From positions 15,254,001 to 15,318,000 of the forward strand of contig CM097885.1 in NCBI GenBank assembly GCA_044892525.1: 64,000 nucleotides of DNA, in the 5' to 3' direction. This stretch comes from Schmidtea polychroa (taxonomy: Eukaryota). Under the pieces are notes generated by a model that saw nothing but the letters and a program-made list of their open reading frames with translations, was not told the origin of the DNA and did not search any database. This document shows positions 21,884 through 64,000 of the stretch, piece by piece. How positions within the stretch are numbered: the stretch's first letter is position 1; the number at the start of each line of letters is the position of its first letter. A program made the translations under genes and the position numbers.

Positions 21884-22326
21884 AATATAGTCTAAATATA
21901 GTCTAGTCTAAATATAGTCTAGTCTAAATATAGTCTAAATATAGTCTAAATATAGTAAATATAGTCTAAATATAGTCTAAATATAGTCTAAATATAGTCT
22001 AAATATAGTCTAAATATAGTCTAAATATAGTCTAAATATAGTCTAAATATAGTCTAAATATAGTCTAAATATAGTCTAAATATAGTCTAAATATAGTCTA
22101 AATATAGTCTAAATATAGTCTAAATATAGTCTAAATATAGTCCAAATATAGTCCAAATATAGTCTAAATATAGTCTAAATATAGTCTAAATATAGTCTAA
22201 ATATAGTCTAAATATAGTCTAAATATAGTCTAAATATAGTCTAAATATAGTCTAAATATAGTCTAAATATAGTCTAAATATAGTCTAAATATAGTCTAAA
22301 TATAGTCTAAATATAGTCTAAATAGT
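21884..22326. repeat. 11-bp minisatellite (AAATATAGTCT)n, about 40 copies
   Basis: Directly visible and nearly homogeneous. Confidence 0.97.
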
Positions 22327-33133: not shown

Positions 33134-34270
33134 TCAATGATTCAAATACAGCACGTCAAGATAAGGATTGTTTAAATTCCCAAATAAAATCTTCCCACCA
33201 GTTTCATAAGCTTCAGTAATAAAATGCATGCCCTTCTTATTCCCACTAATCTCTGAAATAATTTCCCCTTCATTATTTATTTTCAAAATCCGACTTTTAC
33301 CCTTTGATAACATGATAAAAATTCTTTTCGGTATAAGCCAAGCTAAGTAGTAATTTATTAAGGGATAACTGTGAATTATGGAAAACAAGTATGTGTCCTC
33401 TACTGGCAGGGCAACATAAAAATTATCCTGCTCATCTCGTTTAATGTTATCAACCTTTCCCTGAAGACCATCAACAAAAACTTCGACATTGTCGTGAGAT
33501 TTAAGGAGATTAATTTTTAACAATCTTCCTCTTATTAACTCGGCAACTACGAGACTTGTTTCGTTTTGAGTGAGGGATAAACCATTCGGAAATGATAAAT
33601 TCGCTGCGATTAGGTATAATTTTCGGTTTATTAAATCATAGCTGTAAACTCTGCCAGAAGAGTCACCTTCTAAAACGGAATATAACACATCGTCCAAAGT
33701 CCATTTCATTGAGGATACCGTGAAATATATAATTCCGTTCTTTGAAACATCTAACGAATTGAAAAACATTAGTGATCGGGTGAGCATATCTTTATTGGGA
33801 CTTACAAGCACTTGCTTAGTACCCTTATCCAAATGAATAGCATATATACCATGGTATGCATCTGCGACGATTATTTTCCCTTTATCAACATATTTCAACC
33901 CCAAAATTCTTCCACATACTTTCCCGAGTTCGTTTGATTGACAGTTCCGATTATCTTCCCCTATTCTCATAATGGATTTCCATGTAGCTAAATCCTTAGT
34001 TATACTCAATCTATATAGCATGCCATCAGCCGCTCCAGTATAGATATCCCCTGTGACCGGATCATGAGTAAATGATTCAGGCCCCACAAAATCGTTCATA
34101 AATAATCTGCTAGAATTATCCCATGAAATTCTTTTGAAAGTACTTGCAAATTTCAATTGAGTATTTTCGTTTTTCACCATTTTAGGATCAGTTTCAATTT
34201 TCGGGGCGATCCAATAGACGAGAATCGCAAAGCTCACAACTAAAGCAGCACATTTTATTAGCATGACCAT
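33134..34270 (-). CDS. APMAP / strictosidine-synthase-like six-bladed propeller with N-terminal membrane anchor, copy 1 (intronless)
   Basis: GPESF, IYTGAADG, CGRILGL, VADAYHG, FFNSLDV...IYFT, GRVYSYD, LSFPNGL, VDNIKRD. First ATG at 34270. Confidence 0.92.
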   Translation of the reverse strand: MVMLIKCAALVVSFAILVYWIAPKIETDPKMVKNENTQLKFASTFKRISWDNSSRLFMNDFVGPESFTHDPVTGDIYTGAADGMLYRLSITKDLATWKSIMRIGEDNRNCQSNELGKVCGRILGLKYVDKGKIIVADAYHGIYAIHLDKGTKQVLVSPNKDMLTRSLMFFNSLDVSKNGIIYFTVSSMKWTLDDVLYSVLEGDSSGRVYSYDLINRKLYLIAANLSFPNGLSLTQNETSLVVAELIRGRLLKINLLKSHDNVEVFVDGLQGKVDNIKRDEQDNFYVALPVEDTYLFSIIHSYPLINYYLAWLIPKRIFIMLSKGKSRILKINNEGEIISEISGNKKGMHFITEAYETGGKILFGNLNNPYLDVLYLNH

Positions 34271-35338: not shown

Positions 35339-36460
35339 ATGTCACTGATTAACTCATTATCGATTGTCGGCATTTCTGTTTTTTTGTTTTGGTTAACACC
35401 GAAGGTGATCATTGATCCAAAAGTGAAAGTAATCAATGAAGAAGTTTCAGTGCCTTCAAATGAAGTGAAAAGGTTATCATGGAACGAGGTGAACAGAAAA
35501 TTCTCCAACAAACTAACTGGACCGGAAGCATTCACCCATGATATTGTTACAGGTGACATTTATACCGGTACTGCAGATGGAATGGTTTGGAAACTGAACT
35601 TAGAGTTAACAACAATTGAACCGATCATTCGAGTCGGTGATGATCATCCAAATTGCGGATCAGAACATGTTGCTCATATCTGTGGCCGAGTGTTGGGATT
35701 AAAACTCTTCAACAGTGAAACTCTGATTGTTGCCGACTCTTATCGGGGAATTATTGCTATTAATTTGAAAACGAAAACCAAAGAAATGTTGGTAGAAAAA
35801 GATAAAAGTGAAATGACAAAGTCGTTGCAGCTTTTCAATTCCTTAGACATATCGACAAATGGGATTATTTATTTCACAATTTCCTCTATGAAATGGTCAT
35901 TGAAGGACTTTATTTATTCAATTATTGAAGGCGATAATACCGGAGGAATTTACAGTTTCAATATGTTTACGAAAGAATTGAAAGTTTTAGCATCAAATTT
36001 ACACCTTCCAAATGGATTGGCTTTAAGTTCAGATGAAAAGAGTCTCATTGTAAGTGAGGTGAACAAAAGACGATTAATAAAGCTAGATCTTTCAAAACAA
36101 TCAAATAATGTAGAGGTAATTATGGACAATTTAATTGGTATTCCTGCTAATATAAGACGCGATTTGGAGAACAATTATTACCTAGCAATGCCCATGACAG
36201 GCATTACATATACCATTTCCTTTCTTTACAAATATCCCATTATCAACTATCCCCTCGCATATCTGGTTCCAAAATGGGTCATCTTAAAGTTTTTTGGAAG
36301 CGACAGTAAAATTTATAAATTTGATGAGCATGGGAGAATAATTGCAATTATCGATGGAACTCATCCAGGTACGGACTTTGTCACGGAGGCATATGATACT
36401 GGCAATAGGATATTATTAGGAAGTTTGGACCACCCTTATTTGGATGTAATTAGAGTTTAG
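35339..36460 (+). CDS. APMAP / strictosidine-synthase-like protein, copy 2 (373 aa, intronless)
   Basis: GPEAF, IYTGTADG, CGRVLGL, VADSYRG, LFNSLDI...IYFT, LHLPNGL; colinear with copy 1. Confidence 0.92.
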   Translation: MSLINSLSIVGISVFLFWLTPKVIIDPKVKVINEEVSVPSNEVKRLSWNEVNRKFSNKLTGPEAFTHDIVTGDIYTGTADGMVWKLNLELTTIEPIIRVGDDHPNCGSEHVAHICGRVLGLKLFNSETLIVADSYRGIIAINLKTKTKEMLVEKDKSEMTKSLQLFNSLDISTNGIIYFTISSMKWSLKDFIYSIIEGDNTGGIYSFNMFTKELKVLASNLHLPNGLALSSDEKSLIVSEVNKRRLIKLDLSKQSNNVEVIMDNLIGIPANIRRDLENNYYLAMPMTGITYTISFLYKYPIINYPLAYLVPKWVILKFFGSDSKIYKFDEHGRIIAIIDGTHPGTDFVTEAYDTGNRILLGSLDHPYLDVIRV

Positions 36461-37655
36461 TCAGACATTCAGTAAACATTTTTTCTATCATTATGAGTTG
36501 TTTAAATGGTTGTGGAAAGAAACTTATGTATGATTTTAATTAAAAAAGAATTAAAAATAATTTTATTATTTTTTATGTTGATTAAATCACATAGAGATCT
36601 TGTATTATCACCAATGCTTAATATCTCTCACTGTCAAACTTTTCTACACAAACTTCTCACACAGACCTAATGACGAAGCCTTCTAATAATGCTGCCTGAT
36701 ACAGTGTACGTGGTTCAGTCTTAATATAAAGGCCGAATAGCTGGAGGAATTACCAATACAATTACCCGTAATGCATACATTTTTCATCTCTTTAACCAAC
36801 ACCAAACGCAACATCAACGACAAATAGGTTTCCTAGGCCAGGTCCTTATTCCCAGCCCTGCATTCGTAAAGATAACCTTAAACAAATAAGAACTAAGGAC
36901 TAACAGTTCCATATGCGGTACTCACTTTTGTATTAAATCTTAATCATATGAAATATGGCAAACTTCATTCATGACAGGTGCCGGACGGTATGTCAAAATA
37001 TAAATGTTTACAAAATAAATTTGAATCAACACCTGAATAACCTTGGTAAAAACCTTTAAAATAAAACGAACAAAAAATCACAAAGTATATCTTAAAGAGG
37101 AAGAAAAATACATTGACATGTGTTTGATACGGGCAAGGAAGTGGAAGCATTTAAAGTTAGCAAATAATACAGAATAGCACCAAACATAAATGCAAAAAAT
37201 AAATAATACGTAATGATACAGAAGATATACAAAAATAATAATAAAAATAGGATCCTTGTATAAATTATTTAAATATTAATTGAAAATAATTTATAGATAG
37301 ATGTGTGGACTCCAGGCCAGTGGGAATCCTCGACTCTCACAACTTGAGATATTTTCATTTCAACTATTCATTTCAACATGGTGTTTTATTATTTTAGAGT
37401 GGTTGAGTTGACAATTATTTTCATTAACCATTTTTGTTAAATTTCTTTGACGAAACTCATGATTTTTCTTGAATTTAGACTATACATTTTACTTAATCAG
37501 ACAAAGTTTTTATAACTACTAATTGTAATTTAGTTTAAAATATTTTTGAATTCTAAAGCAATTAAAAAAATTAATTTATTTAAAAAACATTTGATAAAAA
37601 ACACTGAAGAATTAAGATTTTTAGTTGGTAAATTTAAGTAGGTAGAAGTGAGCCC

Positions 37656-38010
37656 ACGATGACTCATCGTTGAGGTCAACTTAAGGATATAGAAAATTTT
37701 GAGGTCAACTTAAGGTCAAATTTTAAGGTCAACCCCCATACCCCCTACCCCTAATTTTAAGGTCATAGAAAATTTTAAGGTCAACCCCCTACCCCTAATT
37801 TTAAGGTCATAGAAAATTTTAAGGTCAACCCCCTACCCCTAATTTGAAGGTCATAGAAAATTTTAAGGTCAACCCCCTACCCCCTACCCCTAATTTTAAG
37901 GTCATAGGAAATTTTAAGGTCAACCCCCTACCCTACCCCTAATTTTAAGGTCATAGAAAATTTTAAGGTCAACCTCCCTACCCTTAATTTTAAGGTCAAA
38001 TTGAGGTCAA
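37656..38010 (+). promoter_or_regulatory. Subterminal array: AP-1-centred palindrome plus 16 AGGTCA motifs and C-runs
   Basis: ACGATGACTCATCGT at 37656-37670; repeats of TTTTAAGGTCAACCCCCTACCCCTAA and TTTTAAGGTCATAGAAAA; mirrored at about 51370-51788. Confidence 0.6.
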
Positions 38011-38090
38011 AAATTAAAAATTTTCTAAGTCCATTTAACGAATTACTTTATAGAAAATTTTCAAAGTCAAAACACGTTTTAATACTACGT

Positions 38091-38170
38091 TTGCAAATGT
38101 CTTTGTTACTCATGCATTTGCATTGCAAATGTCTTTGTTACTCATGCATTTGTATTGCATATGTCTTTGT
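38091..38170 (+). repeat. 32-bp tandem repeat (2.5 copies) containing octamer ATTTGCAT and TTACTCA
   Basis: TTGCAAATGTCTTTGTTACTCATGCATTTGCA units begin at 38091, 38123 and 38155. Confidence 0.85.
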
Positions 38171-38299
38171 ATTACACACCTTAAGGATAGAAAAATATTT
38201 CTAAGCGAGATCTAAAGTGAATGTGTGTAATGGGCAATAAATAAGGGTAAAATCAAAATTTTTTAAGAAAATACATGTAATTTGATTAAAATTTATGAA

Positions 38300-38303
<4 letters not shown>

Positions 38304-38338
<35 letters not shown>

Positions 38339-39276
38339 TTATTTTAGGCAGATAATCTATGTGTGTCTGTATATGAAAACATTGATAAGGAGCAATAAAT
38401 AAGGGACGGTTTTACTCACACACACAAGTTTTATATCATTCGAAAGTCTACTATATATATTACATAATTGAATCGAATCAAAATAAGGGCAAAATCAAAA
38501 ATGGTAAAATAAAATGGTCATTATCAGACATTTTAAAAAATATATTTTATTTATTTATTTTAAATAAAAATATGTAATTATGATCATAGTTAATTTAAGC
38601 ACATATTTATTTCACTTTTCACAAAATAATTTTAAAATACCACAACGTAATATATTTTCTATCTTAATTTTAATTGGCTGGAGAATAAAGTATGCTTTTC
38701 ATTATAAACATTTTCATTATTACGAAATAACTTTACAGATAATGATCACAGACATCGATTACGAAAATGGTATTTTCATTATTTTTTAATTCATTTTAAT
38801 ATATATATATATATATTTGTTTTATTTTAGGCAGATAATCTATGTGTGTCTGTATATGAAAACATTGATAAGGAGCAATAAATAAGGGACGGTTTTACTC
38901 ACACACACAAGTTTTATATCATTCGAAAGTCTACTATATATATTACATAATTGAATCGAATCAAAATAAGGGCAAAATCAAAAATGGTAAAATAAAATGG
39001 TCATTATCAGACATTTTAAAAAATATATTTTATTTATTTATTTTAAATAAAAATATGTAATTATGATCATAGTTAATTTAAGCACATATTTATTTCACTT
39101 TTCACAAAATAATTTTAAAATACCACAACGTAATATATTTTCTATCTTAATTTTAATTGGCTGGAGAATAAAGTATGCTTTTCATTATAAACATTTTCAT
39201 TATTACGAAATAACTTTACAGATAATGATCACAGACATCGATTACGAAAATGGTATTTTCATTATTTTTTAATTCA

Positions 39277-39318
<42 letters not shown>

Positions 39319-39773
39319 TTATTTTAGGCAGATAATCTGTGTGTGTCTGTATATGAAAACATTGATAAGGAGCAATAAATAAGGGACGGTTTTACTCACA
39401 CACACAAGTTTTATATCATTCGAAAGTCTACTATATATATTACATAATTGAATCGAATCAAAATAAGGGCAAAATCAAAAATGGTAAAATAAAATGGTCA
39501 TTATCAGACATTTTAAGAAATATATTTTATTTATTTATTTTAAATAAAAATATGTAATTATGATCATAGTTAATTTAAGCACATATTTATTTCACTTTTC
39601 ACAAAATAATTTTAAAATACCACAACGTAATATATTTTCTATCTTAATTTTAATTGGCTGGAGAATAAAGTATGCTTTTCATTATAAACATTTTCATTAT
39701 TACGAAATAACTTTACAGATAATGATCACAGACATCGATTACGAAAATGGTATTTTCATTATTTTTTAATTCA

Positions 39774-39807
<34 letters not shown>
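38304..39807. repeat. Three tandem ~490-bp units bounded by (AT)n tracts (single copy in the right arm, about 50542-51080)
   Basis: An identical 69-codon ORF marks offsets of 483 and 497 bp; AT tracts lie at about 38304, 38799, 39282 and 39779. Confidence 0.95.
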
Positions 39808-39811
<4 letters not shown>

Positions 39812-40019
39812 CTAGATAGCTATTGTGTCATAATTGAAGAACATTTTGTTACTTCGATACCTGCAAAAGAATATGGACGAAAAAGTTAAATAATAATAAT
39901 TCATTGTTTATTCTTAATTGTCTTTTCCAGGAAATTTTAATGAGGATTCAGTTGCTGATTCTGTTGCTTATGCTGCTGGAACTATTGAATATTTCGCAAA
40001 GAAGATAAAATGTAAGTAA
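39722..40019 (+). CDS. Candidate spliced mini-gene in the left arm (exons 39722-39749, 39816-39884, 39931-40011/40019; ~60 aa)
   Basis: GT-AG introns of 66 and 46 nt give the uninterrupted frame MITDIDYENDSYCVIIEEHFVTSIPAKEYGRKRNFNEDSVADSVAYAAGTIEYFAKKIK. Confidence 0.45.
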
Positions 40020-40067
40020 ATTACAAAATTTAACTTAGATTTCTAGTTCTATAGTTTTTTGTTTATG

Positions 40068-40730
40068 AAAATTTAAATTAGTAAAAAATGATATTTAATC
40101 AGATGTTAATATTTAGATGAATTCATTTAAATAAATTTCTTAAAATTAATGAAAATTAGTAATATATAAATTATTAATTAAAATTAGTACAATGTTCAAA
40201 TTTTAACTGAAATTATTTTTTAGACAATATTAATATAGTTATTGTTAGTTTATTTTAACTATATTACGACTATCAACTTTAATTTTATTATAAAAGTATA
40301 AATAAAACTTCATTTCAAAATCGAATTTTTATTTGCAATATTATTTTTACATTAATCAACTAAGATGAAACTAATTTAAAATTTGATTGCATCACGAAAC
40401 TTCTAGTATTTCATGTAAGTGAAATTAAAAGTATATATGGATTGTTAAATAATTAACATATTAAAATAATATCTTTGTTTAAGAAAATTTAAAGTAGTAA
40501 AAAAAATGATATTTAATCAGATGTTTATTGGTAAATATTTAGATGAATTCATTTAAATAAATTTCTTAAAATTATTGAGAATTAGTAATATATTAAATAA
40601 AATTAGTACAAAGTTCAAATTTTAAATGAAATTTATTAGACAATATTTTATTTTTAACTATATTAAGACGATCAACATGAATTTTATTATAAAAAATGAT
40701 GAAAGTATAATGAAACTTCATTTCAAAAAT
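40068..40730. repeat. Diverged ~250-bp direct repeat pair inside the arm (about 40068-40325 and 40483-40730)
   Basis: Shared blocks AAAAAATGATATTTAATCAGATGTT, GATGAATTCATTTAAATAAATTTCTTAAAATTA and AAACTTCATTTCAAAA. Confidence 0.8.
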
Positions 40731-41229
40731 ATGAATTGTGATAAAAAAAAAATTGAACAATTTTGAAATAACTAAGGGCATTCAATAATATTGTAACTCA
40801 TTAAATAAAGTTTACATAGTAAGCTAAATGCTACCCTTGTCCATTTTTATGGTGTATATGGTGAAAAATAAATTTAGATGCACAATGAAATTTAAAAGTG
40901 TAAATCTATAAAATTTAAAATTTATAAAAAAAAAATTGAAAATTCGAAAAAATTAAAAATTGATGCATGTATGTATGTATGGCAAATAAAAAGACTAACA
41001 CAAATACAATAAAATCAAATCATCGAGGACATCCACTTAATGATTTATTTTATGAATGATTATAATTGATTTTATCTTATTTTGAATTTGAATAAATAAT
41101 TGAATATATCGGGGACAAATTAACTTAATTATAAATTTTAATATATTAATAATTTTGGAATAATAATAATTAAGATAAATGATAATCAATAGAGATAAAT
41201 GAATTACTGATAATATAAATGATAATATA

Positions 41230-42171
41230 AAATTTCAAAATAACTAAGATTTCCGAAATATCCAGATTATCCGGAAGAAATTATATTTCAACTCCGAAAG
41301 CCTTAATAAATAAAAATGCATTAATAAATGTGATCAATGGAGATGATATGTGTTTCATATACAGTGTGCTAGCCAATTTGAAAAAAGATATCATTATGGC
41401 TGATAATACAAATGTTGAAAATTATACACAGTTCTTGTCCGAATTGGTATATAATGAATTAGATATGCCAATGAAATTGAAGGACATTTCAAAATTCGAA
41501 AAGCATAACGAAGGAATTGCTATCAATGTCCTCAGTTACAATCCTAAAAATATGATTGATATCGATAATGTGGATATTATAATGAAACATCCACATATTG
41601 ATATAATACATCGGACTAAAGTAACTGGGGTTACACCGATGTATTTACTATTGTTAGAATCGAATGGCCAATACCACTATACTGCAGTTCCAGATTTACA
41701 GCGATTAATGAATTGTAGAAAAACTCATAGTTACCCAGTCCGTATTCAATGCAGATGGTGCGAGACATGTTTAAATGGTTTTAGAAGAGAAGATGCTTTT
41801 GACAGGCATGTAGCTTTATGCAAGAAAAACCAATTGGGCACAACATTATACACATTGCCAGAAATCTCAGATTTAAAATTTAATGACTGGTCAAAAATGG
41901 TAACTCCGCCTTTTGTTATATATGCTGACTTCGAAGCTGTTTTACCACTTGATGAAAGACAACACCAAAAACATTTACCTATAGCAGCGGGGCTGTTACT
42001 GGTAAATAATGTTACTGGGTCAACGAAATATAGTCATTTTATTGGACCAGATTGTGTATACAGATTTCTGATGGATGTAGAAAATATTGTCAACAATATA
42101 GTGAAGGTTTATTATAAGACAAGAGGGCATTGTCAAATGAAATTTTTGACAAATCAGGAAAAGCTGCAATT
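41230..42171 (+). pseudogene. Inverted internal duplicate of pPolB (copy of 46970-47911)
   Basis: Reverse complement of the PolB segment with at least 6 substitutions; no native start and no polymerase motifs. Confidence 0.95.
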
Positions 42172-42332
42172 ATATAAATATAAATATCGATAATCCCATG
42201 TATTTACCAATTGCAAGCTCATGTATAAACAATATAGAAATAAATATTCGTGATGATAGTGGAAACCTTATAAACTTTCCAAAAGATTCGAAAACTCATT
42301 TGACATTACATTTTCGTAAAGTAGATGGCTAA
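42171..42332 (+). pseudogene. C-terminal remnant of the minor capsid protein (penton, PX)
   Basis: INIDNPMYLPIASSCINNIEINIRDDSGNLINFPKDSKTHLTLHFRKVDG* matches the Polinton penton C-terminal pattern (P.Y.P...IEI.IRDD.G..I.F....TLHFR). It begins right at the PolB-copy junction. Confidence 0.8.
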
Positions 42333-42687
42333 TTCTGATATTATTAGTATGTATAGTGATAGCCAATCTGGCGGTGAATTACCATACTTCGTTGGTAAAC
42401 AGTACGGATCAGGATGGCTAAAAACAATTGGGAGATTTGCACTTCCTATTCTTAAACGTATTGGTAGTTTTGGTATGAAAACTGCAAAAGATGTGATTAT
42501 GAATGAACAGAAAATATTACCATCCCTAAAATCAAATGCTTTATCTGAATTAGGGAAGGTTCTACCAAGTGTTGCTGGTATGTTTCAAAAAGAGCCAGCC
42601 CCAGATTATGTTCCAAAACGTAAAAGACATGGAATATCGCGTATAAACAAACGAATGAAAGTACATGGAACTATATTTGCAAAATGA
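42325..42687 (+). CDS. Small basic virion core/membrane-active protein candidate (120 aa)
   Basis: QSGGELPYFVGKQYGSGWLKTIGRFALPILKRIG amphipathic segment and a basic tail. It overlaps the penton stop and the MCP start (ATGA). Confidence 0.75.
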   Translation: MANSDIISMYSDSQSGGELPYFVGKQYGSGWLKTIGRFALPILKRIGSFGMKTAKDVIMNEQKILPSLKSNALSELGKVLPSVAGMFQKEPAPDYVPKRKRHGISRINKRMKVHGTIFAK

Positions 42688-43904
42688 TTTGTGGTAAATC
42701 CGAATTATGTATATTTGATAGACCATCGCCTCAAGCGGTAATAGAATTTGGGGCTTTTGAGGAAGTTTTTCCTATGAATTCAATTACCGATAGTAGAAAT
42801 GATATCGAGTTTTATATTAATGGTTCGCAAACTGAATATTTAGATTTGAACGATACATTATTGACTGTTCAGATCAAGGTTGTAGATAAAGATAGAAAGG
42901 TTTTGGATGCCAATGCAGATGTAATACCGAACAATTTCATGTTTCATACTCTTTTTAAAGATGCAGTGTTGGGATTTAATAATATCAAGATTGAGGGTGG
43001 AAATAATACATTCATTCACAAGGCCTTGATAGAAACTATTTTAAATTACAATTCCGATACTAAAAACACCTGTCTTACTCCTATGGGTTATGCAGCATCA
43101 GATGTTGAAAGAAAAAAGTGGGTTAAAGGCTCAAAAATATTCACCATGTGCTCATCATTACAACTCGACTTTATGGATCAGCCGAAATATTTACTTCCTG
43201 GAGTTAATGTACATATTAGACTGAAAAGATCAGATTCTGCATTATCTCTTACTAGTGCAGGTGCACCAATATGTCAATTAGTTGATGCAAAATTATTGGT
43301 GAGAAGAGTTCGAGTGGACCCGTCAGTATTAGTTGGTCATCAATTGGGTCTTAATTCAAAACATGCAATTTATCCATTAAAGACAAAGGAAATTGTACAA
43401 TTCGCTATTGCTAAAGGTGCTTCATCATTCTATAAAGAACAAATATTTGGTGACAGAAGAATGCCTAATTTTATCCTGATAACATTTCAAAGTGAAACTC
43501 AATATAACGGATCATATACTACATCCAGCTCAATTTTCAAAAACTTTGGTGTTACATCACTGACTTTGTCTAAAAATACTGATTATAGAGAAACATATAC
43601 TCAAGATTTTGAAAGTGATAATTACTGTGCTACATATATGCAGAGTATTGTTAGAAATTTGGGTTATTTAGATAAAAACTTAAATTGTGGAATAACTCTT
43701 GAAGAATTTAAAACCAAATACCCATTTTTTACATTTGTTTTAGCCCCCGATTTTGATTTAAATCAGAGTCAATTACCACAAAACGGGAATTTACGACTGG
43801 ATATAAAGTTTGCAAGAGCCATTACTGAACCGGTACATGTCATTATATATGGAGTATTTGAAAATGAAGTTCAAATTACTGAAAATAGAACTGTGCTGGT
43901 ATAA
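42684..43904 (+). CDS. Major capsid protein (double jelly-roll, PY/hexon-like), 406 aa, intact
   Basis: CGKSELCIF..PSPQ, IEFYING..EYLDLNDT, PNNFMFHTLF, DQPKYLLPGV.V.IRL, GNLRLDIKFA; typical Polinton MCP. Confidence 0.92.
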   Translation: MICGKSELCIFDRPSPQAVIEFGAFEEVFPMNSITDSRNDIEFYINGSQTEYLDLNDTLLTVQIKVVDKDRKVLDANADVIPNNFMFHTLFKDAVLGFNNIKIEGGNNTFIHKALIETILNYNSDTKNTCLTPMGYAASDVERKKWVKGSKIFTMCSSLQLDFMDQPKYLLPGVNVHIRLKRSDSALSLTSAGAPICQLVDAKLLVRRVRVDPSVLVGHQLGLNSKHAIYPLKTKEIVQFAIAKGASSFYKEQIFGDRRMPNFILITFQSETQYNGSYTTSSSIFKNFGVTSLTLSKNTDYRETYTQDFESDNYCATYMQSIVRNLGYLDKNLNCGITLEEFKTKYPFFTFVLAPDFDLNQSQLPQNGNLRLDIKFARAITEPVHVIIYGVFENEVQITENRTVLV

Positions 43905-43968
43905 ATGTGTGAATAAATCTAGAAACATTTATCATGGAGTAAGTTTTCTTTAAACTAATAAAATTATT

Positions 43969-44312
43969 ATGTTAGTTCTATTCAGATAAATCGAATTGGT
44001 ACTCAAATATTAGGTAAAGAGTTTGTTGGAGTGTACCCACTAGACAAAATCCCCTATTTAGATGTGAATCAAGCCATAATTGTCAACACATATTCGTCTA
44101 CTCTGGGAGGAGAACATTGGATTGCAGTCTACGTGAAGCCGAATAAAATATATGTTTTCGATCCAATGGGATTTTACTATCCAGCCCTATTGATCAAAAA
44201 GCTATCAATTATTGGTCAAGTTGATTACAATAAAACTCGGTTTCAACATCCATTAACAAATACTTGTGGACAACATTGTCTAGCTTGGCTAATGTATAAA
44301 CATCTTTGTTAA
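43969..44312 (+). CDS. Adenain-like cysteine maturation protease; likely 1-nt frameshift just after the ATG
   Basis: FVGVYPLD, IVNT, GEHW, FDPMG, FQ....TCGQHC (H/D/Q/C). The frame is open from 43962, and the ATG at 43969 is out of frame by one. Confidence 0.85.
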
Positions 44313-44388
44313 ATAAATGTATTGTAAAAAAAAATGTTGTGTTACTTTATTTAAACAAAGTCGTTACTGAATTATGTATAATAAATGT

Positions 44389-44389
<1 letters not shown>

Positions 44390-44423
<34 letters not shown>

Positions 44424-44531
44424 AGCCATGAATTTATTAATAATATTAATAATAAAAATAATAATAATAATAAAAATAATAATAATAATAAAAATAATAA
44501 TAATAACAATAATAATAATAATAATAATAAT
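44390..44531. repeat. (AT)n and (AAT)n tracts between the converging protease and PolB genes
   Basis: Directly visible. Confidence 0.9.
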
Positions 44532-44862
44532 CGTTTCTCAACAATAAATGCAATCAATATTTGCAATCCTAAAGAGGACGTATACACATTCACAATAAAA
44601 TATTTAGGACTCAAAAGAGAAACAACGCAATAAAAATAAACATAATTATGAGAACCAATATGCATTAAAAGGACAATTATATTGGTTACAACAAGTACCA
44701 TTACAAAAGTTACAAATGAATCATTATATTGGTGGTTCGATCTCATCTCTTTTCAAAACTGTTCAGAAACTGTGTCAAAACTGGAGAAACTGTGCAGAAA
44801 CTAAAATAAAAATAAAAATATTTTTAAAAATAAAACGGATAAATCATTACCATTAATCATTA

Positions 44863-47800
44863 TCATTCGTCTGCAGATGATTCATCAAGAGGCAAAATAT
44901 TATTTAATTCATTATCTAAAATATTATAATGCACATATGCGAAGCTCTTGTTCTCTTCAACCCAAACCCTTTTATCATCGTTATTTGTAAGGGCTACCTT
45001 CTTAGTTCTAAATGTAAATAATTGATGGTTTCGTGTACCAAACCGGGATTGATTCACCTTCGGTATACACATTCCAAGATAACAATCCACATACGATTGA
45101 TGTGTGATTTCTGTTCCCTTTAATGATACACCTTTGGCTTTATTTATAGTATCATTATCACAAGTTGGCAAACTATAGCATTTGGGTCTGAGGAATACCC
45201 ATTCTTGATATGATTTGCCTTTGTTTTCGTCCTTGAATTTCCCAATTACAGAATCCAAATTTCGTGAATATAATGGATCTGTAGGATCGTAGTTGCTGGT
45301 GTCTAACAATCCGTCAGCAATCATTGCAGGAAGTAATTGTGATCGCAATTTGACATATTTACATTCGAGGAAGAATGAGTCTGTATCCCCGGCTATGATA
45401 TTTATTTGGCAATTGAACTGTGCTCGATATTTTGACAGTTCAATATACTGTAGTTCATACATTCTAAGTTTAGATAAGTCTAGCACTGTTTGACCAATGT
45501 AGCTAGGCCTATCTAAACAAACTACATCTTTATTCAGCAAAAGGGCAATTAAATCATTAGCAATTTTAATTGAACGTCTAAATGTTGGCTTTGAAGTGTA
45601 TTTAACCAATTTTTCGGCATTGTTGCACAATCTCAGATTTATTCTTTACTTCAGATTCTCCACTGTCTTGCCGTAAACACTATTATTTAAAAGTTTATAA
45701 AAATCTCTATCTAAACTATTTTGTGATTCAGCTCGAAGTTGGGTATTTGTGTTGATATAATCCTTCAATATCGGCTTTTGTGTAAATTTTATTGCACGAT
45801 GTATATTGGTGACTTCCACTCCGAGGCCCATATATAATTTCAAAAGTCTCCAATGAATAACATAATTAGTTTTCGCATAATGGGTTAATAATAATTTTGG
45901 TACAGTGGAATCTGGTGGACACATTTTCTCTGCTGCGACTGGAAAATCGTCTAATAGATCGTGGATATTAGACGGGATGACTAAATCAACTTCCAATGTG
46001 TATCCATAAGTTAAATTTTCTAGTTTGGAACTAATACAGTCAACTAAAATGGATAATAATTCCACTTCATTATATATCCACTCAAAATCGCTACATGGCA
46101 AGTATTGGCTTAACGCCCACCCGTACAGGTTGTTTATATCGATATAAAGCAACTCTGTTTCATCATCTGTTACAGCGAAGTGTTTATTTACAAATGTGAG
46201 ACCACCACGGATCCCACCCTCGAAGAAATTATACATCTCCATGTCCATCAGTAATTCCACTGGTTCTTCTAAGGTCATGAGCGCAGATGCCCAAGACATT
46301 CCAGGGATTCCAAAAAAATTGAGTGGCTCGAGTCCATTATGTGCTTTTGATCTTGCTCGAAATTGTTGGAAGAAATCGGCAAGTAAAAACACATCAAGTT
46401 TTAAATAAATTTGTAAATAATCCATTAGAGTTTCGCAACTTGTTTCTTGCCATATTTGTTGCGCTATTATATATTCTTCATTTGTACCGCCTTCCCAAAT
46501 AGCGGGCAATTCATATGTTGTTTCTAATATTTCCTCACTTGTGGCAAAATCAAAAGGAAAAATTCCTTTGTTGTTTATGATGGTTGCAGTATTGAATACT
46601 GAACGGGTCAAAGGCAAGTCGTTCAATGTTTTTACTGCATTATGTAATGAAGTATTGACAAACTGATATGAGTCAATAATTCTTATTGTAAATTTACCCA
46701 GCCATGCTATCAATGTTAAAAATTTCTCAGTGCTTGTTGGTATGCAGCTGAGACTCCAATGAAGAAATTGATTGAGCCCATATTTCAAAATGTGATGTAG
46801 ATTATACCCTTTCAGATTATGAAATACGATGGGTAATGTTTCTCTGATTTTCCTTTGTTGATTGCATACATTGCATGAGGCTCCGAGATATTTGCCAGTG
46901 AAATGATCATGGTCTTTCACTTTCTCTGGCATTGGCTTTTTGCACAAGTAACAATTGACTGCTGTGTGGAATTGCAGCTTTTCCTGATTTGTCAAAAATT
47001 TCATTTGACAATGCCCTCTTGTCTTATAATAAACCTTCACTATATTGTTGACAATATTTTCTACATCCATCAGAAATCTGTATACACAATCTGGTCCAAT
47101 AAAATGACTATATTTCGTTGACCCAGTAAAATTATTTACCAGTAACAGCCCCGCTGCTATAGGTAAATGTTTTTGGTGTTGTCTTTCATCAAGTGGTAAA
47201 ACAGCTTCGAAGTCAGCATATATAACAAAAGGCGGAGTTACCATTTTTGACCAGTCATTAAATTTTAAATCTGAGATTTCTGGCAACGTGTATAATGTTG
47301 TGCCCAATTGGTTTTTCTTGCATAAAGCTACATGCCTGTCAAAAGCATCTTCTCTTCTAAAACCATTTAAACATGTCTCGCACCATCTGCATTGAATACG
47401 GACTGGGCAACTATGAGTTTTTCTACAATTCATTAATCGCTGTAAATCTGGAACTGCAGTATAGTGGTATTGGCCATTCGATTCTAACAATAGTAAATAC
47501 ATCGGTGTAACCCCAGTTACTTTAGTCCGATGTATTATATCAATATGTGGATGTTTCATTATAATATCCACATTATCGATATCAATCATATTTTTAGTAT
47601 TGTAACTGAGGACATTGATAGCAATTCCTTCGTTATGCTTTTCGAATTTTGAAATGTCCTTCAATTTCATTGGCATATCTAATTCATTATATACCAATTC
47701 GGACAAGAACTGTGTATAATTTTCAACATTTGTATTATCAGCCATAATGATATCTTTTTTCAAATTGGCTAGCACACTGTATATGAAACACATATCATCT

Positions 47801-48819
47801 CCATTGATCACATTTTTTAATGCATTTTTATTTATTAAGGCTTTCGGAGTTGGAATATAATTTCTTCCGGATAATCTGGATATTTCGGAAATCTTAGTTA
47901 TTTTGAAATTTATTTCAATTATTCTTATCAGACGCCATCCGCTTCCAAGTTCCGATCTGATATGAATTTTCTCGTGCAACTTTTCAATACCATCTGCAAT
48001 AAACTTTTCAAAATTGTTCTCAGTTACCATCACCGCTTTGTTAGAAAATCTTGATGATTGGAATTCTCCATCTTTTTCGAAATCACATTCTATCCCGAAT
48101 TGAACTTTCACAGTTTTCATCTCCTTGATTGTAGATAATAGTTTCTCAGAGAAAGTTTCGGGTAGATTTATCTCATTCATGTTTTTGAACGACATTTTAA
48201 TTGTTTTATGACAATTTTTCAAGTCAGATTCAATCTCGACTTCTTCAGTAGGTTCCCATTCATTAACAATCTGGAAATCATCCCATATATTGTCCTCTTC
48301 TACTATTTGTTCCGTTTCCACTGGTTCTTCCACCGGTTCTTCCACTGGTTCTTCCACTGGTTCTTCCACTGGTTCTTCCACTGGTTCTTCCACCGGTTCT
48401 TCCACTGGTTCTTCCACTGGTTCTTCCACTGGTTCTTCCACTGGTTCTTCCACTGGTTCTTCCACTGGTTCTTCCACTGGTTCTTCCACTGATTCTTCAA
48501 TATCTTCTATCATATTAGTTGATCCACAACCAATTTGATAATTTAAAAAATTCCCTGATTCACCTATAACGATAACATCATCATCAGATTCATCTATAAT
48601 GATGATGTTATCATTAAGTTTTTGTTTTTTAGTAGGTACGTCTATTATACCGTTATTAAATAATTTTTTAAAAAATTCTTTTTTATCCGATTTAAAATAT
48701 GTAAGATGATCTTTGTGATCATTATAAAATATTTCATAGGGCTTAGTGAAAAGAGCTTCGCAAAATGGGCATAAATAATATTTTTTATTATAATAATTTC
48801 TTAAATAGTATTTTTCCAT
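44863..48819 (-). pseudogene. Protein-primed family B DNA polymerase (1318 codons) with one in-frame TAA at 45646-45648
   Basis: YADFE (Exo I), DHDHFTG...CNVCN, FHNLKGY (Exo II), YLKLDV (Exo III), IRGG, YIDINNLYG (A), KLLNNSVYGK (B), GDTDS (C), GKFKDE, RPKCY, KAKGV, DDKR. The two ORFs are in frame: ENLK*RINLRLC. Confidence 0.95.
48318..48490 (-). repeat. Coding 12-bp minisatellite giving (EEPV)x14 in the PolB N-terminus
   Basis: CCACTGGTTCTT units every 12 bp from 48318 to 48474. Confidence 0.97.
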
Positions 48820-49125
48820 TGCATCATGGCATTGTTTCCCATCATGTTCTTTTGCGGTGCAACATTGTTTGTATAAATTGCCTTAAATAATTACAATTGC
48901 TTTATTATGTTTCTTTTTAAACAAATTTAACAATAAACATCTCTCAAAAGTTTATATTTTTTATGGGCGGAAAGGTTGATTTTGATCTTGGTTTATATAG
49001 CGAAATGCAATATAAAAAAGAATTATTTAATTTTATAATATATTTATTTTATTATTTTATGTTTTATTTATTTATTTTTAAACATTAAATGGTTTAATTA
49101 TATGGTTTATTTATAATATTGAATT

Positions 49126-51024
49126 TCATTTATATTATCGGTAATTCATTTATCTCTATTGATTATCATTTATCTTAATTATTATTATTCCAAAATTATT
49201 AATATATTAAAATTTATAATTAAGTTAATTTGTCCCCGATATATTCAATTATTTATTCAAATTCAAAATAAGATAAAATCAATTATAATCATTCATAAAA
49301 TAAATCATTAAGTGGATGTCCTCGATGATTTGATTTTATTGTATTTGTGTTAGTCTTTTTATTTGCCATACGTACATACATGCATCAATTTTTAATTTTT
49401 TCGAATTTTCAATTTTTTTTTTATAAATTTTAAATTTTATAGATTTACACTTTTAAATTTCATTGTGCATCTAAATTTATTTTTCACCTCTATACACCAT
49501 AAAAATGGACAAGGGTAGCATTTAGCTTACTATGTAAACTTTATTTAATGAGTTACAATATTATTGAATGCCCTTAGTTATTTCAAAATTGTTCAATTTT
49601 TTTTTTATCACAATTCATATTTTTGAAATGAAGTTTCATTATACTTTCATCATTTTTTATAATAAAATTCATGTTGATCGTCTTAATATAGTTAAAAATA
49701 AAATATTGTCTAATAAATTTCATTTAAAATTTGAACTTTGTACTAATTTTATTTAATATATTACTAATTCTCAATAATTTTAAGAAATTTATTTAAATGA
49801 ATTCATCTAAATATTTACCAATAAACATCTGATTAAATATCATTTTTTTTACTACTTTAAATTTTCTTAAACAAAGATATTATTTTAATATGTTAATTAT
49901 TTAACAATCCATATATACTTTTAATTTCACTTACATGAAATACTAGAAGTTTCGTGATGCAATCAAATTTTAAATTAGTTTCATCTTAGTTGATTAATGT
50001 AAAAATAATATTGCAAATAAAAATTCGATTTTGAAATGAAGTTTTATTTATACTTTTATAATAAAATTAAAGTTGATAGTCGTAATATAGTTAAAATAAA
50101 CTAACAATAACTATATTAATATTGTCTAAAAAATAATTTCAGTTAAAATTTGAACATTGTACTAATTTTAATTAATAATTTATATATTACTAATTTTCAT
50201 TAATTTTAAGAAATTTATTTAAATGAATTCATCTAAATATTAACATCTGATTAAATATCATTTTTTACTAATTTAAATTTTCATAAACAAAAAACTATAG
50301 AACTAGAAATCTAAGTTAAATTTTGTAATTTACTTACATTTTATCTTCTTTGCGAAATATTCAATAGTTCCAGCAGCATAAGCAACAGAATCAGCAACTG
50401 AATCCTCATTAAAATTTCCTGGAAAAGACAATTAAGAATAAACAATGAATTATTATTATTTAACTTTTTCGTCCATATTCTTTTGCAGGTATCGAAGTAA
50501 CAAAATGTTCTTCAATTATGACACAAGCGCTATCTAGAAAATATATATATATATATATATATATTAAAATGAATTAAAAAATAATGAAAATACCATTTTC
50601 GTAATCGATGTCTGTGATCATTATCTGTAAAGTTATTTCGTAATAATGAAAATGTTTATAATGAAAAGCATACTTTATTCTCCAGCCAATTAAAATTAAG
50701 ATAGAAAATATATTACGTTGTGGTATTTTAAAATTATTTTGTGAAAAGTGAAATAAATATGTGCTTAAATTAACTATGATCATAATTACATATTTTTATT
50801 TAAAATAAATAAATAAAATATATTTTTTTAAATGTCTGATAATGACCATTTTATTTTACCATTTTTGATTTTGCCCTTATTTTGATTCGATTCAATTATG
50901 TAATATATATAGTAGACTTTCGAATGATATAAAACTTGTGTGTGTGAGTAAAACCGTCCCTTATTTATTGCTCCTTATCAATGTTTTCATATACAGACAC
51001 ACATAGATTATCTGCCTAAAATAA

Positions 51025-51083
<59 letters not shown>

Positions 51084-51807
51084 TTCATAAATTTTAATCA
51101 AATTACATGTATTTTCTTAAAAAATTTTGATTTTACCCTTATTTATTGCCCATTACACACATTCACTTTAGATCTCGCTTAGAAATATTTTTCTATCCTT
51201 AAGGTGTGTAATACAAAGACATATGCAATACAAATGCATGAGTAACAAAGACATTTGCAATGCAAATGCATGAGTAACAAAGACATTTGCAAACGTAGTA
51301 TTAAAACGTGTTTTGACTTTGAAAATTTTCTATAAAGTAATTCGTTAAATGGACTTAGAAAATTTTTAATTTTTGACCTCAATTTGACCTTAAAATTAGG
51401 GGTAGGGGGGTAGGGGAGGTTGACCTTAAAATTTTCTATGACCTTAAAATTAGGGGTAGGGGTAGGGGGTTGACCTTAAAATTTCCTATGACCTTAAAAT
51501 TTTCTATGACCTTCAAATTAGGGGTAGGGGGTTGACCTTAAAATTTTCTATGACCTTAAAATTTCCTATGACCTTAAAATTTGACCTTAAATTTGGAAAA
51601 ATTAGACTTTGGCCTCAAACGTTGACCTTAAAATAGCCTAAAATCGACTTTGACCTCAGAATTTGACCTTAAAATGGCTTAAATTGACCTTAAATTGTCC
51701 TGAAAATGACATTGACCTTAAAATTTGACCTTAAGTTGACCTCAAAATTTTCTATTGCCTTAAGTTGACCTCAACGATGAGTCATCGTGGGCTCACTTCT
51801 ACCTACT
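49126..51807 (-). repeat. Right inverted arm (long TIR) of the Polinton, about 2.7 kb
   Basis: Reverse complement of the left arm, with one ~490-bp unit and an extra TGACCT-rich block at about 51590-51720. Confidence 0.95.
50330..50621 (-). CDS. Mirror copy of the candidate spliced mini-gene in the right arm
   Basis: Same splice sites and frame; reads DSAC instead of DSYC. Confidence 0.45.
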
Positions 51808-52294
51808 AATTTATTATTGTGTACATGATTTAATGTAAATAGAAAGAGTTGCATAGTGGATGAAGATACTTAATGAATATAGGTTGGTACTTGGTACCTA
51901 GTAGTTGGTTGAAATGTCTAGAGGATTGTGTGGTCTGTACAGTTCTTTCCAAGGATATAAGAAGAAAGAAATAGTACACATTTTACTATTAGCACTAAGA
52001 AGACCGTACTATAAGCAAATTTGTGATGAAGAATAAACTTTTACATTTATCTTTAATTGTTATTATTTTTATGTGTTTGTTAGTACCGTTTGTAAGTACT
52101 TGGTTGAATTATTATTATTGTTATCATTAATATTCACAAAAATTTATTTCATAAAACGTTGCTTTAAAAATATCCTTTGAAAGTTCACTTGAAAAAGGCA
52201 GTGCTGAGAATTCGTGAATATCAAAAACATCTATTAAATCTTTCTTCGTGATTAGTTTTGAATTGAGAAAATACAAAGTAATGATTTATTCTCT

Positions 52295-52545
52295 TTAGAT
52301 TAAAACTTTACAATTATAAAATTCTTTACTCAAATAAGTTTGTAAATTAGCTGGTTTACCGTCTTTAAACATTGTTTTTATTGCAACAGTCATTTCATTA
52401 GCAGATAGTTCAAGCATAGTTCGAACAAATCTACTAGCAACATGAATACATGTCAAAATATATTTGTAACCCTTGTTAATTTTAGAAAATGAAATCATTT
52501 CCATTAAATCCATTTTCCACAAATCATTGATACCATGTTTTATAT
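52295..52545 (-). pseudogene. Degraded Polinton-type retroviral-like integrase fragment outside the element
   Basis: GINDLWKMDLMEM...NKGYKYILTCIHVASRF...PANLQTYLSKEFYN matches W..DL.DM...N.GYKYIL..ID.FS...P..LQTD.G.EFYN; the second catalytic Asp is Tyr. Confidence 0.85.
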
Positions 52546-52931
52546 GCTCCTGCAGTAAATAAAAATTTTGGGAAAATCAATAAGAATCTAAGTTGCAATG
52601 GAAATATATTCATCAATAATCAAAATTGTTGTTTTCATGATGCCTTTGAAAAAATAATTTAACGCAACAATGAATATGGTTTAGCTAGGTACCCAATTAT
52701 AATCAAATATATATATACTTTTGTATTGTAATTAAATAGTTTTTTGTGCGTATATGTCTTGTGTGTGTATATTATGAAGTGTGATAGAACCCAGCCGAGT
52801 CTCCTTTAAAAGAACTGTGTCGGGACAGCTGGGGTGCGTGTATGTAATGTGGCAGATATAATATAAAATAAATCAGTTAATTCAATTTCAACTTTTATTA
52901 TCATAAAAAGAATTTAAATAATAAAAATGCA

Positions 52932-53151
52932 CTTTATTGCCAATGTTCTAATACTTTTGTTTATTGCCAATTCTTTATTGCCAATTCTTTATTGCCAATT
53001 CTTTATATGCCTTTTCTTTATAGCCAATTCTTTATTGACAATTCTTTATTGCCAAATCTTTATTGCCAATTCTTTACTGCCAATGCTTTATTGCTAATTC
53101 TTTATTGCCTTTTCTTTATAGCCAATTCTTTATTGCCTTTTCTTTATTGCC
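52932..53151. repeat. Degenerate 14-bp minisatellite (TTCTTTATTGCCAA)n
   Basis: Directly visible. Confidence 0.9.
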
Positions 53152-53861
53152 AGTGTTCGACAAATTTCAATTTATAATATTCTAATATTCAACCAATTTC
53201 TAATAGTTAACTTAATTTTTTTCTATCGATTTTTATTTGTTTTCGATATTTTTATTTAGCGATAATTCACTATGGTAAATTATCGCTATATAGTTTTTTT
53301 TATCTTTTTTTACAAGCAACGTGTGCCAACAGGAATAACCAACATTAAAAAATATAATTTAACAATACATTATAAACACAAAAAAATATTGCAATACTTT
53401 TACACATACAATTGTAACAAAATATGGAGTAACTCTCAAATTGTCAAACAGGATTTCATGGTTGCCTACTTTCAGAAGTATAGCAGTAAAATAGATTGTG
53501 AAGACCAGGAAGCAAATCGAAGACTCCATGCACAGTTTGAGTAAGAATTAATAGAGTCATGAGCTAAATATTTTTAAGAATACTTGGACCAAATTTCAGA
53601 ATTGTTTACATTTTTACCACACAATTTATTATTTACAAAATAGTGAACTTATATCGAATTTTCAGCCAAATGAACTTTGACCGTCATGGCCGAATTGTTG
53701 ATGTTCAGTGGACAATCATAAACCAATTCATTCGTGAAATCTGTTTTCATACAATAAGTTCTCAGAGATGTGGGAGCTCAACAGCGGCAAACTTTACTCA
53801 TCTAACCCATATATTATTTCATTGCCTAAAAGATGTAACATTATATTTATTAAAAATTTGA

Positions 53862-62331: not shown

Positions 62332-62639
62332 GTTAGTGTTTTAATTTAATGTATTTTCTGTACTTTAAATTAATTATTTCAACTCATTGGATTTGTAGTA
62401 ATTTTATGTTGATAATTGTCAATGTGAGATAGAATGTTGCAATGCAAAACTATTGATATGCTCAACACTTCGGATTATTAAAATTTAATAATTTTTCAAT
62501 GACATCAACAAATAAATTTTGTTATGTTGACAATAAATACTTTCAATTTATGATTAAAGGATAAATTGCTAGGCAACCCATAATTTTCATTTCGTATGAC
62601 GCCGACACGTTTCACGATAGGCATTCCTTTCCATTGACA

Positions 62640-63310
62640 TGTATCACATGTGATTCATGTTGAATATGGATGCATCACATATGATACATGTTGCTTGTTC
62701 ATGCACGACATGTGATTCACATGGAATATTCATGCATCACATGTGATTCATGTTGAATATTCACGCATCATATGTGATTCATATTATATATTCATGCATC
62801 ACATGTGATTCATATTATATATTCATGCATCACACGTGATTCATGTTGAATATTCACGCATCATATGTGATTCATATTATATATTCATGCATCACGTGTG
62901 ATTCATATTATATATTCATGCATCACATGTGATTCATGTTATATATTCATGCATCACATGTGATTCATGTTATATATTCATGCATCACATGTGATTCATA
63001 TTATATATTCATGCATCACACGTGATTCATGTTAAATATTCACGCATCATATGTGATTCATATTATATAATCATGCATCACATGTGATTCATATTATATA
63101 TTCATGCATCACGTGTGATTCATATTATATATTCACGCATCATATGTGATTCATATTATATATTCATGCATCACGTGGGATTCATATTATATATTCATGC
63201 ATCACGTGTGATTCATGTTGAATATGCATGCATCTTATTTTATTAAATGGAATATTAATTTCATGCATCACATCTGATTCATGTTGCATATTCTTGCAGC
63301 ATATGTGATT
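62640..63310. repeat. 31-bp minisatellite (about 20 copies) with palindromic ATCACATGTGAT core, in the presumed TMEM120 intron
   Basis: Unit TTCATATTATATATTCATGCATCACATGTGA; period 31 (62780, 62811). Confidence 0.93.
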
Positions 63311-64000
63311 CATTTTGAATATCAATATATCCTTCGTATTTCAATAAATCTTTACCATCCTACTTACAAGTGACATTATAAACTTAGGTAATTATCTTTA
63401 TTTGAAACCTAACCATATTTTCTGCATCCAATAATAGAGGAGTGTAGAGAAAATTCAGTCATATATAATATGAAGCATTTTATGAGCCTTTCAAACTAAT
63501 CTTACGAAGAAAAGTGATGAATATAAAAAGCCAAAAGTGCACCGGTATTGTATGTGAACAGTGAATGTATGAACCAATTCATTTATTATAATATAGCTAC
63601 TAAATATTAGATATACAAAGTCAACAATTGATCTATGAATTCTACAATTTATATATTTTGTAATTTTACTCTTCATAAATTCATTTAGAACTTCATAAAT
63701 AATAACTTATTATTAAATTTAGTGATTAAAGTTACGTATTCAATTGAATAAAATTAAACATTTTCAACATCTGTACTTGCAGATTGGAATAAATAAATAT
63801 TAGGCAAGCATTATTAGAATTAGATTGTTTTTTAATGCAATTGTTATCAAAATGATGGACTAATATAATAATTAGCAGAACTTTATATATATTCTGACTC
63901 GTCCTAAAAATTTGAGAATATTTTCTTTTTTCAACCAAATTTTCATTTATTGTATTGCTTGATTTCACAGGAAGCAGGACATTATCCCCCGTGACATCCG

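Follow-up and report, generated by a model that had tools for sequence, protein, structure and literature searches.

Related systems and the element under study

Animal Polinton/Maverick elements, according to the family descriptions in PMC6431247 and PMC3014272, combine a 6-bp target-site duplication (TSD) and terminal inverted repeats (TIRs) shorter than 1 kb with a family B DNA polymerase (PolB), an adenain-type protease, and a double jelly-roll capsid protein. An element of this kind, 14,171 bp long, lies at 37637-51807 (C1:15291637-15305807) of a 64,000-nucleotide stretch of the Schmidtea polychroa genome (contig CM097885.1, positions 15,254,001 to 15,318,000), hereafter the window. Its family bears the 6-bp TSD, TIRs of 0.75-0.9 kb with AG-rich termini, the double jelly-roll capsid, and the adenain protease. 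Unlike the described elements, the window copy has no integrase, ATPase, or TBP-like gene and only a remnant of the penton gene, and it has 4.5-kb arms that include coding sequence. The element is a genuine Polinton derivative, non-autonomous, and belongs to a class, found repeatedly in this genome, of copies with both ends from one side of the element. Its geometry is that of a copy-back genome, but its junctions do not support a defective-interfering satellite. To our knowledge, the replication cycle of animal Polintons (a free linear form, protein priming, and strand displacement) is inferred from gene content and has not been observed.

In the "2RT" copies of Galileo in Drosophila mojavensis, the interior of one end has been recruited in inverted orientation into the other end (TIR1-F1-F1-TIR2); such copies are given as 38 of 170, all non-autonomous, and the proposed cause of the extended TIRs is in-place homologous repair (PMC3573991). 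Polintons, too, are reported to show expansion of inverted repeats, according to the same paper, which cites its references 12 (Jurka et al., 2007), 43, and 48. Inverted recruitment of interior sequence into the opposite end is what the window copy has in common with Galileo as described there. However, Galileo is a cut-and-paste P-type element with longest TIRs of about 1.26 kb, whereas the arms of the same-end Polintons are about 1.3-5.4 kb long, contain fragments of genes, and are about as old as the insertion.

Copy-back and snap-back defective viral genomes are described mainly for negative-strand RNA viruses and are defined by amplification and interference (PMC13506859). As in those genomes, one terminus and its reverse complement enclose a unique loop here, and the family also has near-palindromic cases (C1:195151127 and C1:30358576); in contrast to them, the family copies are integrated DNA. 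Palindromic by-products of terminal-protein replication in phi29 and terminal transpositions in poxviruses likewise have one end of a linear double-stranded DNA genome inverted and duplicated and the other lost, which is attributed to template switching; these are free genomes that do not integrate.

Mu killer (PMC3440606) and Ac/Ds composite insertions (bioRxiv 10.1101/2020.01.07.897926) are inverted duplications of one transposon end and part of its main gene that are able to give hairpin RNA, and silencing has been shown for them. The window copy resembles them in being a one-end inverted duplication that includes part of a main gene and could give hairpin RNA. Its mirror aims a PolB fragment and the upstream region inward against the resident PolB, and by analogy with Mu killer could give rise to double-stranded RNA. 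Polinton-mediated inversions in Caenorhabditis elegans, attributed to recombination between copies (bioRxiv 10.1101/2024.01.15.575659), are a different event. No census or dating of same-end Polinton copies was found in the literature searched; long-TIR non-autonomous Polintons may well be described in Jurka et al. (2007) or Repbase, which lay outside that search.

Structure of the window copy

A first-pass annotation, made from the window sequence, had interpreted 37637-47911 as a copy-back-like defective Polinton. Its end was placed too far to the left, as the element runs to 51807. The mirror geometry that it described agrees with both self-BLAST and the raw sequence, and the perfect 6-bp TSD that it noted (AATTTA on both sides, at 37631-37636 and 51808-51813) encloses termini reading AGTAG...CTACT. 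The left 4,535 bp repeat the right end in inverted orientation and fall into two blocks. The first block (37637-41222) is the reverse complement of 49126-51807, and the second (41230-42171) is the reverse complement of PolB positions 46970-47911. The 1.2 kb said to be skipped in the left arm measures 1,214 bp (47912-49125), and the filler reported at this junction is a 7-nt repeat of adjacent sequence (41223-41229). The longest arm block in the self-BLAST comparison (1,942 bp) has 99.2% identity. Because the native TIR of the family is only about 0.75-0.9 kb in comparisons across family copies, the left arm must include about 3.7 kb recruited from the interior. A 483-bp unit occurs in three tandem copies in the left arm (38316-39796) and once in the right arm, which is the sole such amplification among 29 matches. 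The two TIRs of the window copy differ in their inner short-repeat arrays, like those of most family copies. Beyond a 5-nt filler at the inner end of the left arm, the order is penton tail, a 120-aa open reading frame (ORF), capsid, protease, and minus-strand PolB. The features are as follows.

37631..37636, left TSD, AATTTA
37637..38401 (+), left TIR over its native extent (about 765 bp), short-repeat arrays variable
37637..41222 (+), left arm part 1, TIR and AT-rich non-coding region upstream of PolB, mirroring 49126-51807
38316..39796 (+), 483-bp unit, three copies in tandem, with (TA)n tracts at the borders
41223..41229 (+), deletion junction with 7-nt filler repeating adjoining sequence, 1,214 bp skipped (read by hand)
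41230..42171 (+), left arm part 2, inverted PolB segment (46970-47911); a 281-aa fragment ORF spans 41348-42193
42172..42176 (+), inversion junction with 5-nt filler ATATA resembling downstream sequence
42177..42332 (+), putative penton, last ~52 codons, named from gene order without a profile match
42325..42687 (+), small ORF of 120 aa, family-conserved, no family match
42684..43904 (+), major capsid protein, 406 aa, double jelly-roll (predicted structure and Foldseek)
43934..44312 (+), adenain-type cysteine protease (Pfam Peptidase_C5), with a probable 5-nt mini-exon and 37-nt GT-AG intron
44863..48819 (-), family B DNA polymerase (identified by motifs), with endonuclease VII-like insert and in-frame stop at 45646-45648
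48820..50961 (-), right non-coding region, AT-rich
50962..51807 (-), right TIR, about 846 bp
51808..51813, right TSD, AATTTA

Comparison with full-length family members, which the first-pass annotation had proposed, defined both the native TIR and the lost genes. The left part of a native copy starts with a TIR and small reverse ORFs, one of them a TBP-like gene, and continues with an A32-like ATPase, a 162-aa protein, an rve integrase with a chromodomain, and penton. The right part begins with the 120-aa ORF and the capsid and protease genes, followed by reverse PolB, non-coding sequence of about 2.7 kb, and the second TIR. Measured against the full-length copy used as a ruler, about 6.3 kb is missing from the left interior of the window copy. 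A full-length family copy has an rve integrase (E 1e-7) with a chromodomain and a Pox_A32 ATPase (E 8e-7). When the proteins of a full-length copy were used as tblastn queries, the ATPase, integrase, TBP-like, 162-aa, 140-aa, and 124-aa proteins had no match inside the window element, and the penton query matched codons 304-355 only (42174-42329). The reported lack of integrase and ATPase genes is therefore real, and without these two autonomy genes the window copy is non-autonomous. The entry into the penton gene, put earlier at the last ~53 codons, falls at about 52 codons from its end. Among the lost genes, the TBP-like gene of one family copy (L056:3705-4157, minus strand) matches Pfam TBP (E 3e-15). 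A left-end ORF of another copy (L023:7471-7965, plus strand), which is also gone from the window copy, has a weak Bcl-2 match (E 0.02).

Recurrence of same-end copies

The census covered one assembly of 781 Mb, in which a 26-base terminal motif has 71 exact matches (0 for the reversed control). The DNA around 60 of the 71 was examined, and 33 copies or fragments were mapped on one natural full-length copy that served as the coordinate ruler. Twelve of these (one-ended, interrupted, or in host segmental duplications) were excluded, leaving 21 two-ended copies, 20 of which have a matching 6-mer at their ends. Ordinary left-right copies make up 12 of the 21; six of them are full-length in gene order, including one with an extra tandem right-end fragment, and six are internally deleted. 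Two copies, a 2.6-kb mini copy and a 39-kb interrupted copy, are ambiguous.

The remaining seven copies have both ends from one side, so the geometry recurs at other loci with different TSDs. Five are right-right (the window copy, C1:30358576, C1:70907903, C1:195151127, and C2:11578110) and two are left-left (C1:67802505 and C1:142131676). Six of the seven have matching 6-bp TSDs, all different, although one of these sits inside an ATT microsatellite and carries little information. None of the seven keeps the full gene set. The same accident arose independently in at least seven copies, none of which is seen to have jumped again.

Several individual copies have features of their own. The copy at C1:195151127-195164789 is young and near-palindromic, with arms 100% identical over 1,593 bp and polymerase sequence alone between two right ends, a layout like that of linear plasmids. 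A deleted family copy (C2:71769261-71781639, TSD AAGCTA) is inserted in the ATPase gene of a related Polinton. At C1:67050001-67060000, a family copy is itself interrupted by a different Polinton-like family with its own polymerase-, ATPase-, and integrase-like ORFs (identified by eye). Six junctions or more, and a 105-bp fragment of the terminus in its interior, mark a copy that is repeated at C1:8.67, 8.73, and 9.01 Mb; these repeats share the host flank, which indicates host segmental duplication.

Origin and age of the arms

Over 1,951 scorable sites, the two arms of the window copy have no site at which they carry two different family alleles, and they have five minority alleles in common. 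Rare alleles are common to the arms in both segments, together with one sub-terminal allele found in no other copy. All 10 differences between the arms are singletons, at which one arm agrees with nearly every other copy and its partner bears a base found nowhere else. When the six same-end copies bounded by a TSD are pooled, the arms carry different family alleles at 2 of 11,647 sites. These patterns indicate that the template of the second arm was the same molecule, or its sister, and not another locus.

Mutations that arose before the duplication should be shared by the arms and absent elsewhere, whereas later ones should be private to one arm. The window arms have 0 shared-private and 9 (6 + 3) arm-private changes in 1,951 sites, compared with 19 private changes in 5,424 sites of the single-copy part. 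The mirror is therefore about as old as the insertion, and at most 44% of the private history predates the duplication (95% bound). The six same-end copies pooled have 6 shared and 26 arm-private changes. Native TIR pairs of 13 other copies, used as a control, have 3 and 31 in 4,741 sites (26 recurrent-allele differences set aside), and a direct duplication at C1:64540222 has 13 and 1. The pooled arms are indistinguishable from the native TIR pairs (Fisher p=0.30) and differ from the direct duplication (p=3e-6). Private-change rates in the same-end class (0.05-0.70%, ambiguous mini copy included) do not differ from those of full-length copies (p=0.85), and several junctions are already present in some of the youngest same-end copies. 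The same-end events were early, but the counts cannot tell formation at integration from formation shortly afterward. TIR features diagnostic of left or right, by which the left terminus might be recognized as the original left TIR, were sought and none was found, because the repeat arrays vary in every copy.

The control at C1:64540222-64562343 is a tandem arrangement in which a 5-kb right-end fragment precedes a full-length copy inside one TSD, with an internal AGTA joined exactly to the terminus. Re-initiation at a free end was considered for this arrangement and rejected in view of the 13 shared-private changes and a single difference in 3,619 sites; parts this nearly identical point to a late event or an assembly effect.

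Junctions of same-end copies

DNA searches across the junctions gave full-length matches to the two window junctions at their own locus only. The junctions of five other same-end copies are also at a single locus each, so that in 6/6 copies none is common to another locus. Each search scored the best 40 candidates in the one assembly; C1:142131676 and the 2.6-kb mini copy lay outside it. One searched junction was found twice, in both arms of the same element. In one left-left copy, an identical novel junction is present in both arms, which indicates that the second arm was copied from an already rearranged first arm. The first-pass annotation had held that junctions found at this locus only would favor a local rearrangement over a mobile defective class, and by that standard the search speaks against its proposal of a mobile defective-interfering satellite; the six searched copies give no sign that such a satellite propagates.

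Among the inversion junctions of seven same-end copies, four have 1-9 bp of microhomology and two have inserts of 5 and 13 nt. Two further same-end inversion junctions fall within AAT/ATT microsatellites. The sequence reverses within 44 bp in one copy and within 231 bp in another, at microhomologies of 2 and 9 bp, respectively, and both copies have an extra deletion near the turn. A tight turn with a nearby deletion suggests that a fold-back came first and that the host trimmed the palindrome later. Such trimming could also account for the 4.9-kb loop and the 1.2-kb arm deletion of the window copy.

Possible mechanisms

The best explanation, to which we assign a probability of roughly 50%, is that copy-back during the transposition cycle of an active Polinton family yielded the window element as a single, dead-end product, which was integrated by the integrase of a sibling and perhaps trimmed later by host repair. 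Under the established model, a free linear copy would be replicated from its ends by protein-primed strand displacement. A strand started at the right end may then have left its template, re-primed on the displaced strand or on itself, and been extended outward again as far as the right terminus. The resulting molecule, with a right end on either side, would integrate within a perfect 6-bp TSD. If copy-back preceded insertion, the integrase must have come from the parent or a sibling, since the element has a perfect TSD and no integrase gene of its own. Host repair may subsequently have trimmed the long inverted repeat, producing the 1.2-kb arm deletion and perhaps also the central asymmetry of 4.9 kb, and the 483-bp unit may have been tripled by slippage between (TA)n tracts. 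We infer the free intermediate, the responsible polymerase, and the order of rearrangement and integration. The copy-back genome proposed in the first-pass annotation is partly supported, in that both termini derive from one end around a unique loop and the arms are of one haplotype and formed at about integration; its mobility as a satellite is not supported. Similarly, the geometry fits the annotation's "at least two template switches," but one fold-back followed by host deletions fits it as well.

Several observations weigh against copy-back before integration. No free linear form has been observed. Both window junctions have short templated fillers and no microhomology. Short fillers that repeat neighboring bases are typical of polymerase-theta end-joining. 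Plain deletion copies show the same mix of junction types, so junction style is no pointer to a viral polymerase. The same-end copy at C1:30358576 has no TSD. The dating is coarse. Pooled over the six copies, 32% of the history (interval 13-53%) precedes duplication, and the pooled count falls between the two models, with P=0.055 if the copies formed exactly at integration and P=0.03-0.10 if they formed in place with uniform timing. C2:11578110, with 3 shared and 2 arm-private changes, looks later, and the tandem at C1:64540222 indicates that late duplications, in place or in the assembly, occur in this family.

Alternatively, TIR-primed repair may have acted in place soon after insertion, an explanation that we regard as a serious possibility, although we would not bet on it. 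A break or excision gap in the left part of an integrated full-length copy would be mended with the element's own right TIR, or that of the sister chromatid, as template; synthesis would run into the right interior and be end-joined to the broken middle, leaving the flanks and TSD intact and requiring no integrase in trans. The single-locus junctions in every searched copy and the templated fillers at both window junctions are in line with such repair, the shared haplotype and perfect TSD are expected under it too, and late-looking cases exist (C2:11578110 and the C1:64540222 tandem). However, uniform timing is mildly disfavored, both in the pooled count and for the window alone (P=0.07-0.17), and rearrangement does not rise with copy age. 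Repair triggered by excision would pass the age test, as its events would cluster early, during family activity. The novel junction in both arms of one copy would need three switches in place, compared with two in a free molecule. If in-place repair is the correct explanation, the window copy repeats on a larger scale what has been described for Galileo TIRs, and its interest is modest.

A lineage of mobile defective-interfering satellites, replicated, repeatedly integrated in trans, and competing with a helper, is very improbable. The perfect ends and TSD of the window copy speak for it. However, none of the six searched same-end copies has a junction common to another locus among the best 40 candidates scored for each, the only repeated junctions occur in copies with the same host flank and reflect segmental duplication, and there is no evidence of interference.

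Slighter still is the case for recombination or conversion between two family copies, by which the right end of another element would have entered the left part. Many copies with more than 97% identity could have served as donors, and over the PolB segment the left arm is nominally nearer to three other copies than to its sister (4-5 versus 6 differences). Nevertheless, over the non-coding segment no copy comes as close as the sister arm (4 differences of 1,403), and the private singletons and shared rare alleles described above, including the allele found in no other copy, already largely refute this explanation; an unsampled donor with the haplotype of the window copy is possible.

Misassembly, through a fold-back chimeric read or mis-joined repeat copies, is about as improbable: although no contig among the pieces listed from four public runs (two studies) on 41000-44400 bridges either junction, and the listed loose ends carry native continuations, contigs drop rare variants and the samples may lack the insertion, whereas the TSD matches across 14 kb and the arms have 9-10 private substitutions at about the single-copy rate plus repeat-count differences, which argues against a fold-back read (expected to give identical arms) as well as a mis-join (expected to give mixed haplotypes).

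Implications for Polinton replication

A single locus of this type would be unremarkable, but the frequency of the class and its early dates make the replication model testable from genomes. Independent same-end copies that can be dated by arm divergence provide a natural test of the Polinton replication model. Under strand displacement, fold-back products should arise and insert with clean ends; under host repair, the sites should also have full-length alleles, and the dates should be later. The class may also be a route to foldback non-autonomous Polintons and self-silencing alleles, and its long inverted arms distort the annotation of family TIRs. A broader proposal is more doubtful, namely that copy-back switching is a routine by-product of protein-primed Polinton replication and that about one-third of new family insertions are copy-back genomes integrated in trans. 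If it were true, the host genome would be a fossil record of the defective genomes of a DNA virus, and copy-back molecules could seed gene-less foldback Polinton satellites and hairpin-RNA loci that silence the family.

Retained genes and neighboring features

The predicted structure of the capsid protein has a predicted local distance difference test (pLDDT) score of 91 and a double jelly-roll fold, and its Foldseek matches include the capsids of an iridovirus (E 4e-16), Paramecium bursaria chlorella virus 1 (PBCV-1), and mavirus (E range 4e-16 to 5e-13). Over the penton end, 120-aa ORF, and capsid (42177-43908), contigs of the four public runs are in sum about 100-400x deeper than over PolB or the protease, a summed depth that does not equal copy number. 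Many of these deep contigs are 90-99% identical to the window and have different sequence past the capsid stop, which suggests a far more abundant sister family with a common capsid module.

The protease matches Pfam Peptidase_C5 (E 7e-7). Its start apparently comprises a 5-nt exon and a 37-nt GT-AG intron, with the same sequence in four other matches, and the mini-exon is probably spliced. The resident PolB is disrupted by its in-frame stop. Exonuclease- and polymerase-like motifs are present. Searches of Pfam, PHROGs, and PDB sequences with PolB matched the endonuclease VII insert only and gave no polymerase match. Short GC-richer blocks with splice-like borders lie within the non-coding arms at 39820-40020 and, in the mirror, near 50330-50530; they may be a mini-exon leader of PolB. 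The window as a whole has about 29% GC.

To the left of the element, two divergent intronless strictosidine-synthase-like genes, at 33134-34270 (minus strand) and 35339-36460 (plus strand), match Pfam Str_synth (E 3e-20 and 6e-23, respectively) and are separated by long AAT/TTA microsatellites. Just to its right, 52224-52674 is a decayed fragment of a more distant Polinton with an integrase about 50% identical. Tandem arrays outside the element are found at 1830-2429 (297 bp), 21883-22324 (11 bp), 52960-53152 (14 bp), and 62638-63322 (31/93 bp).

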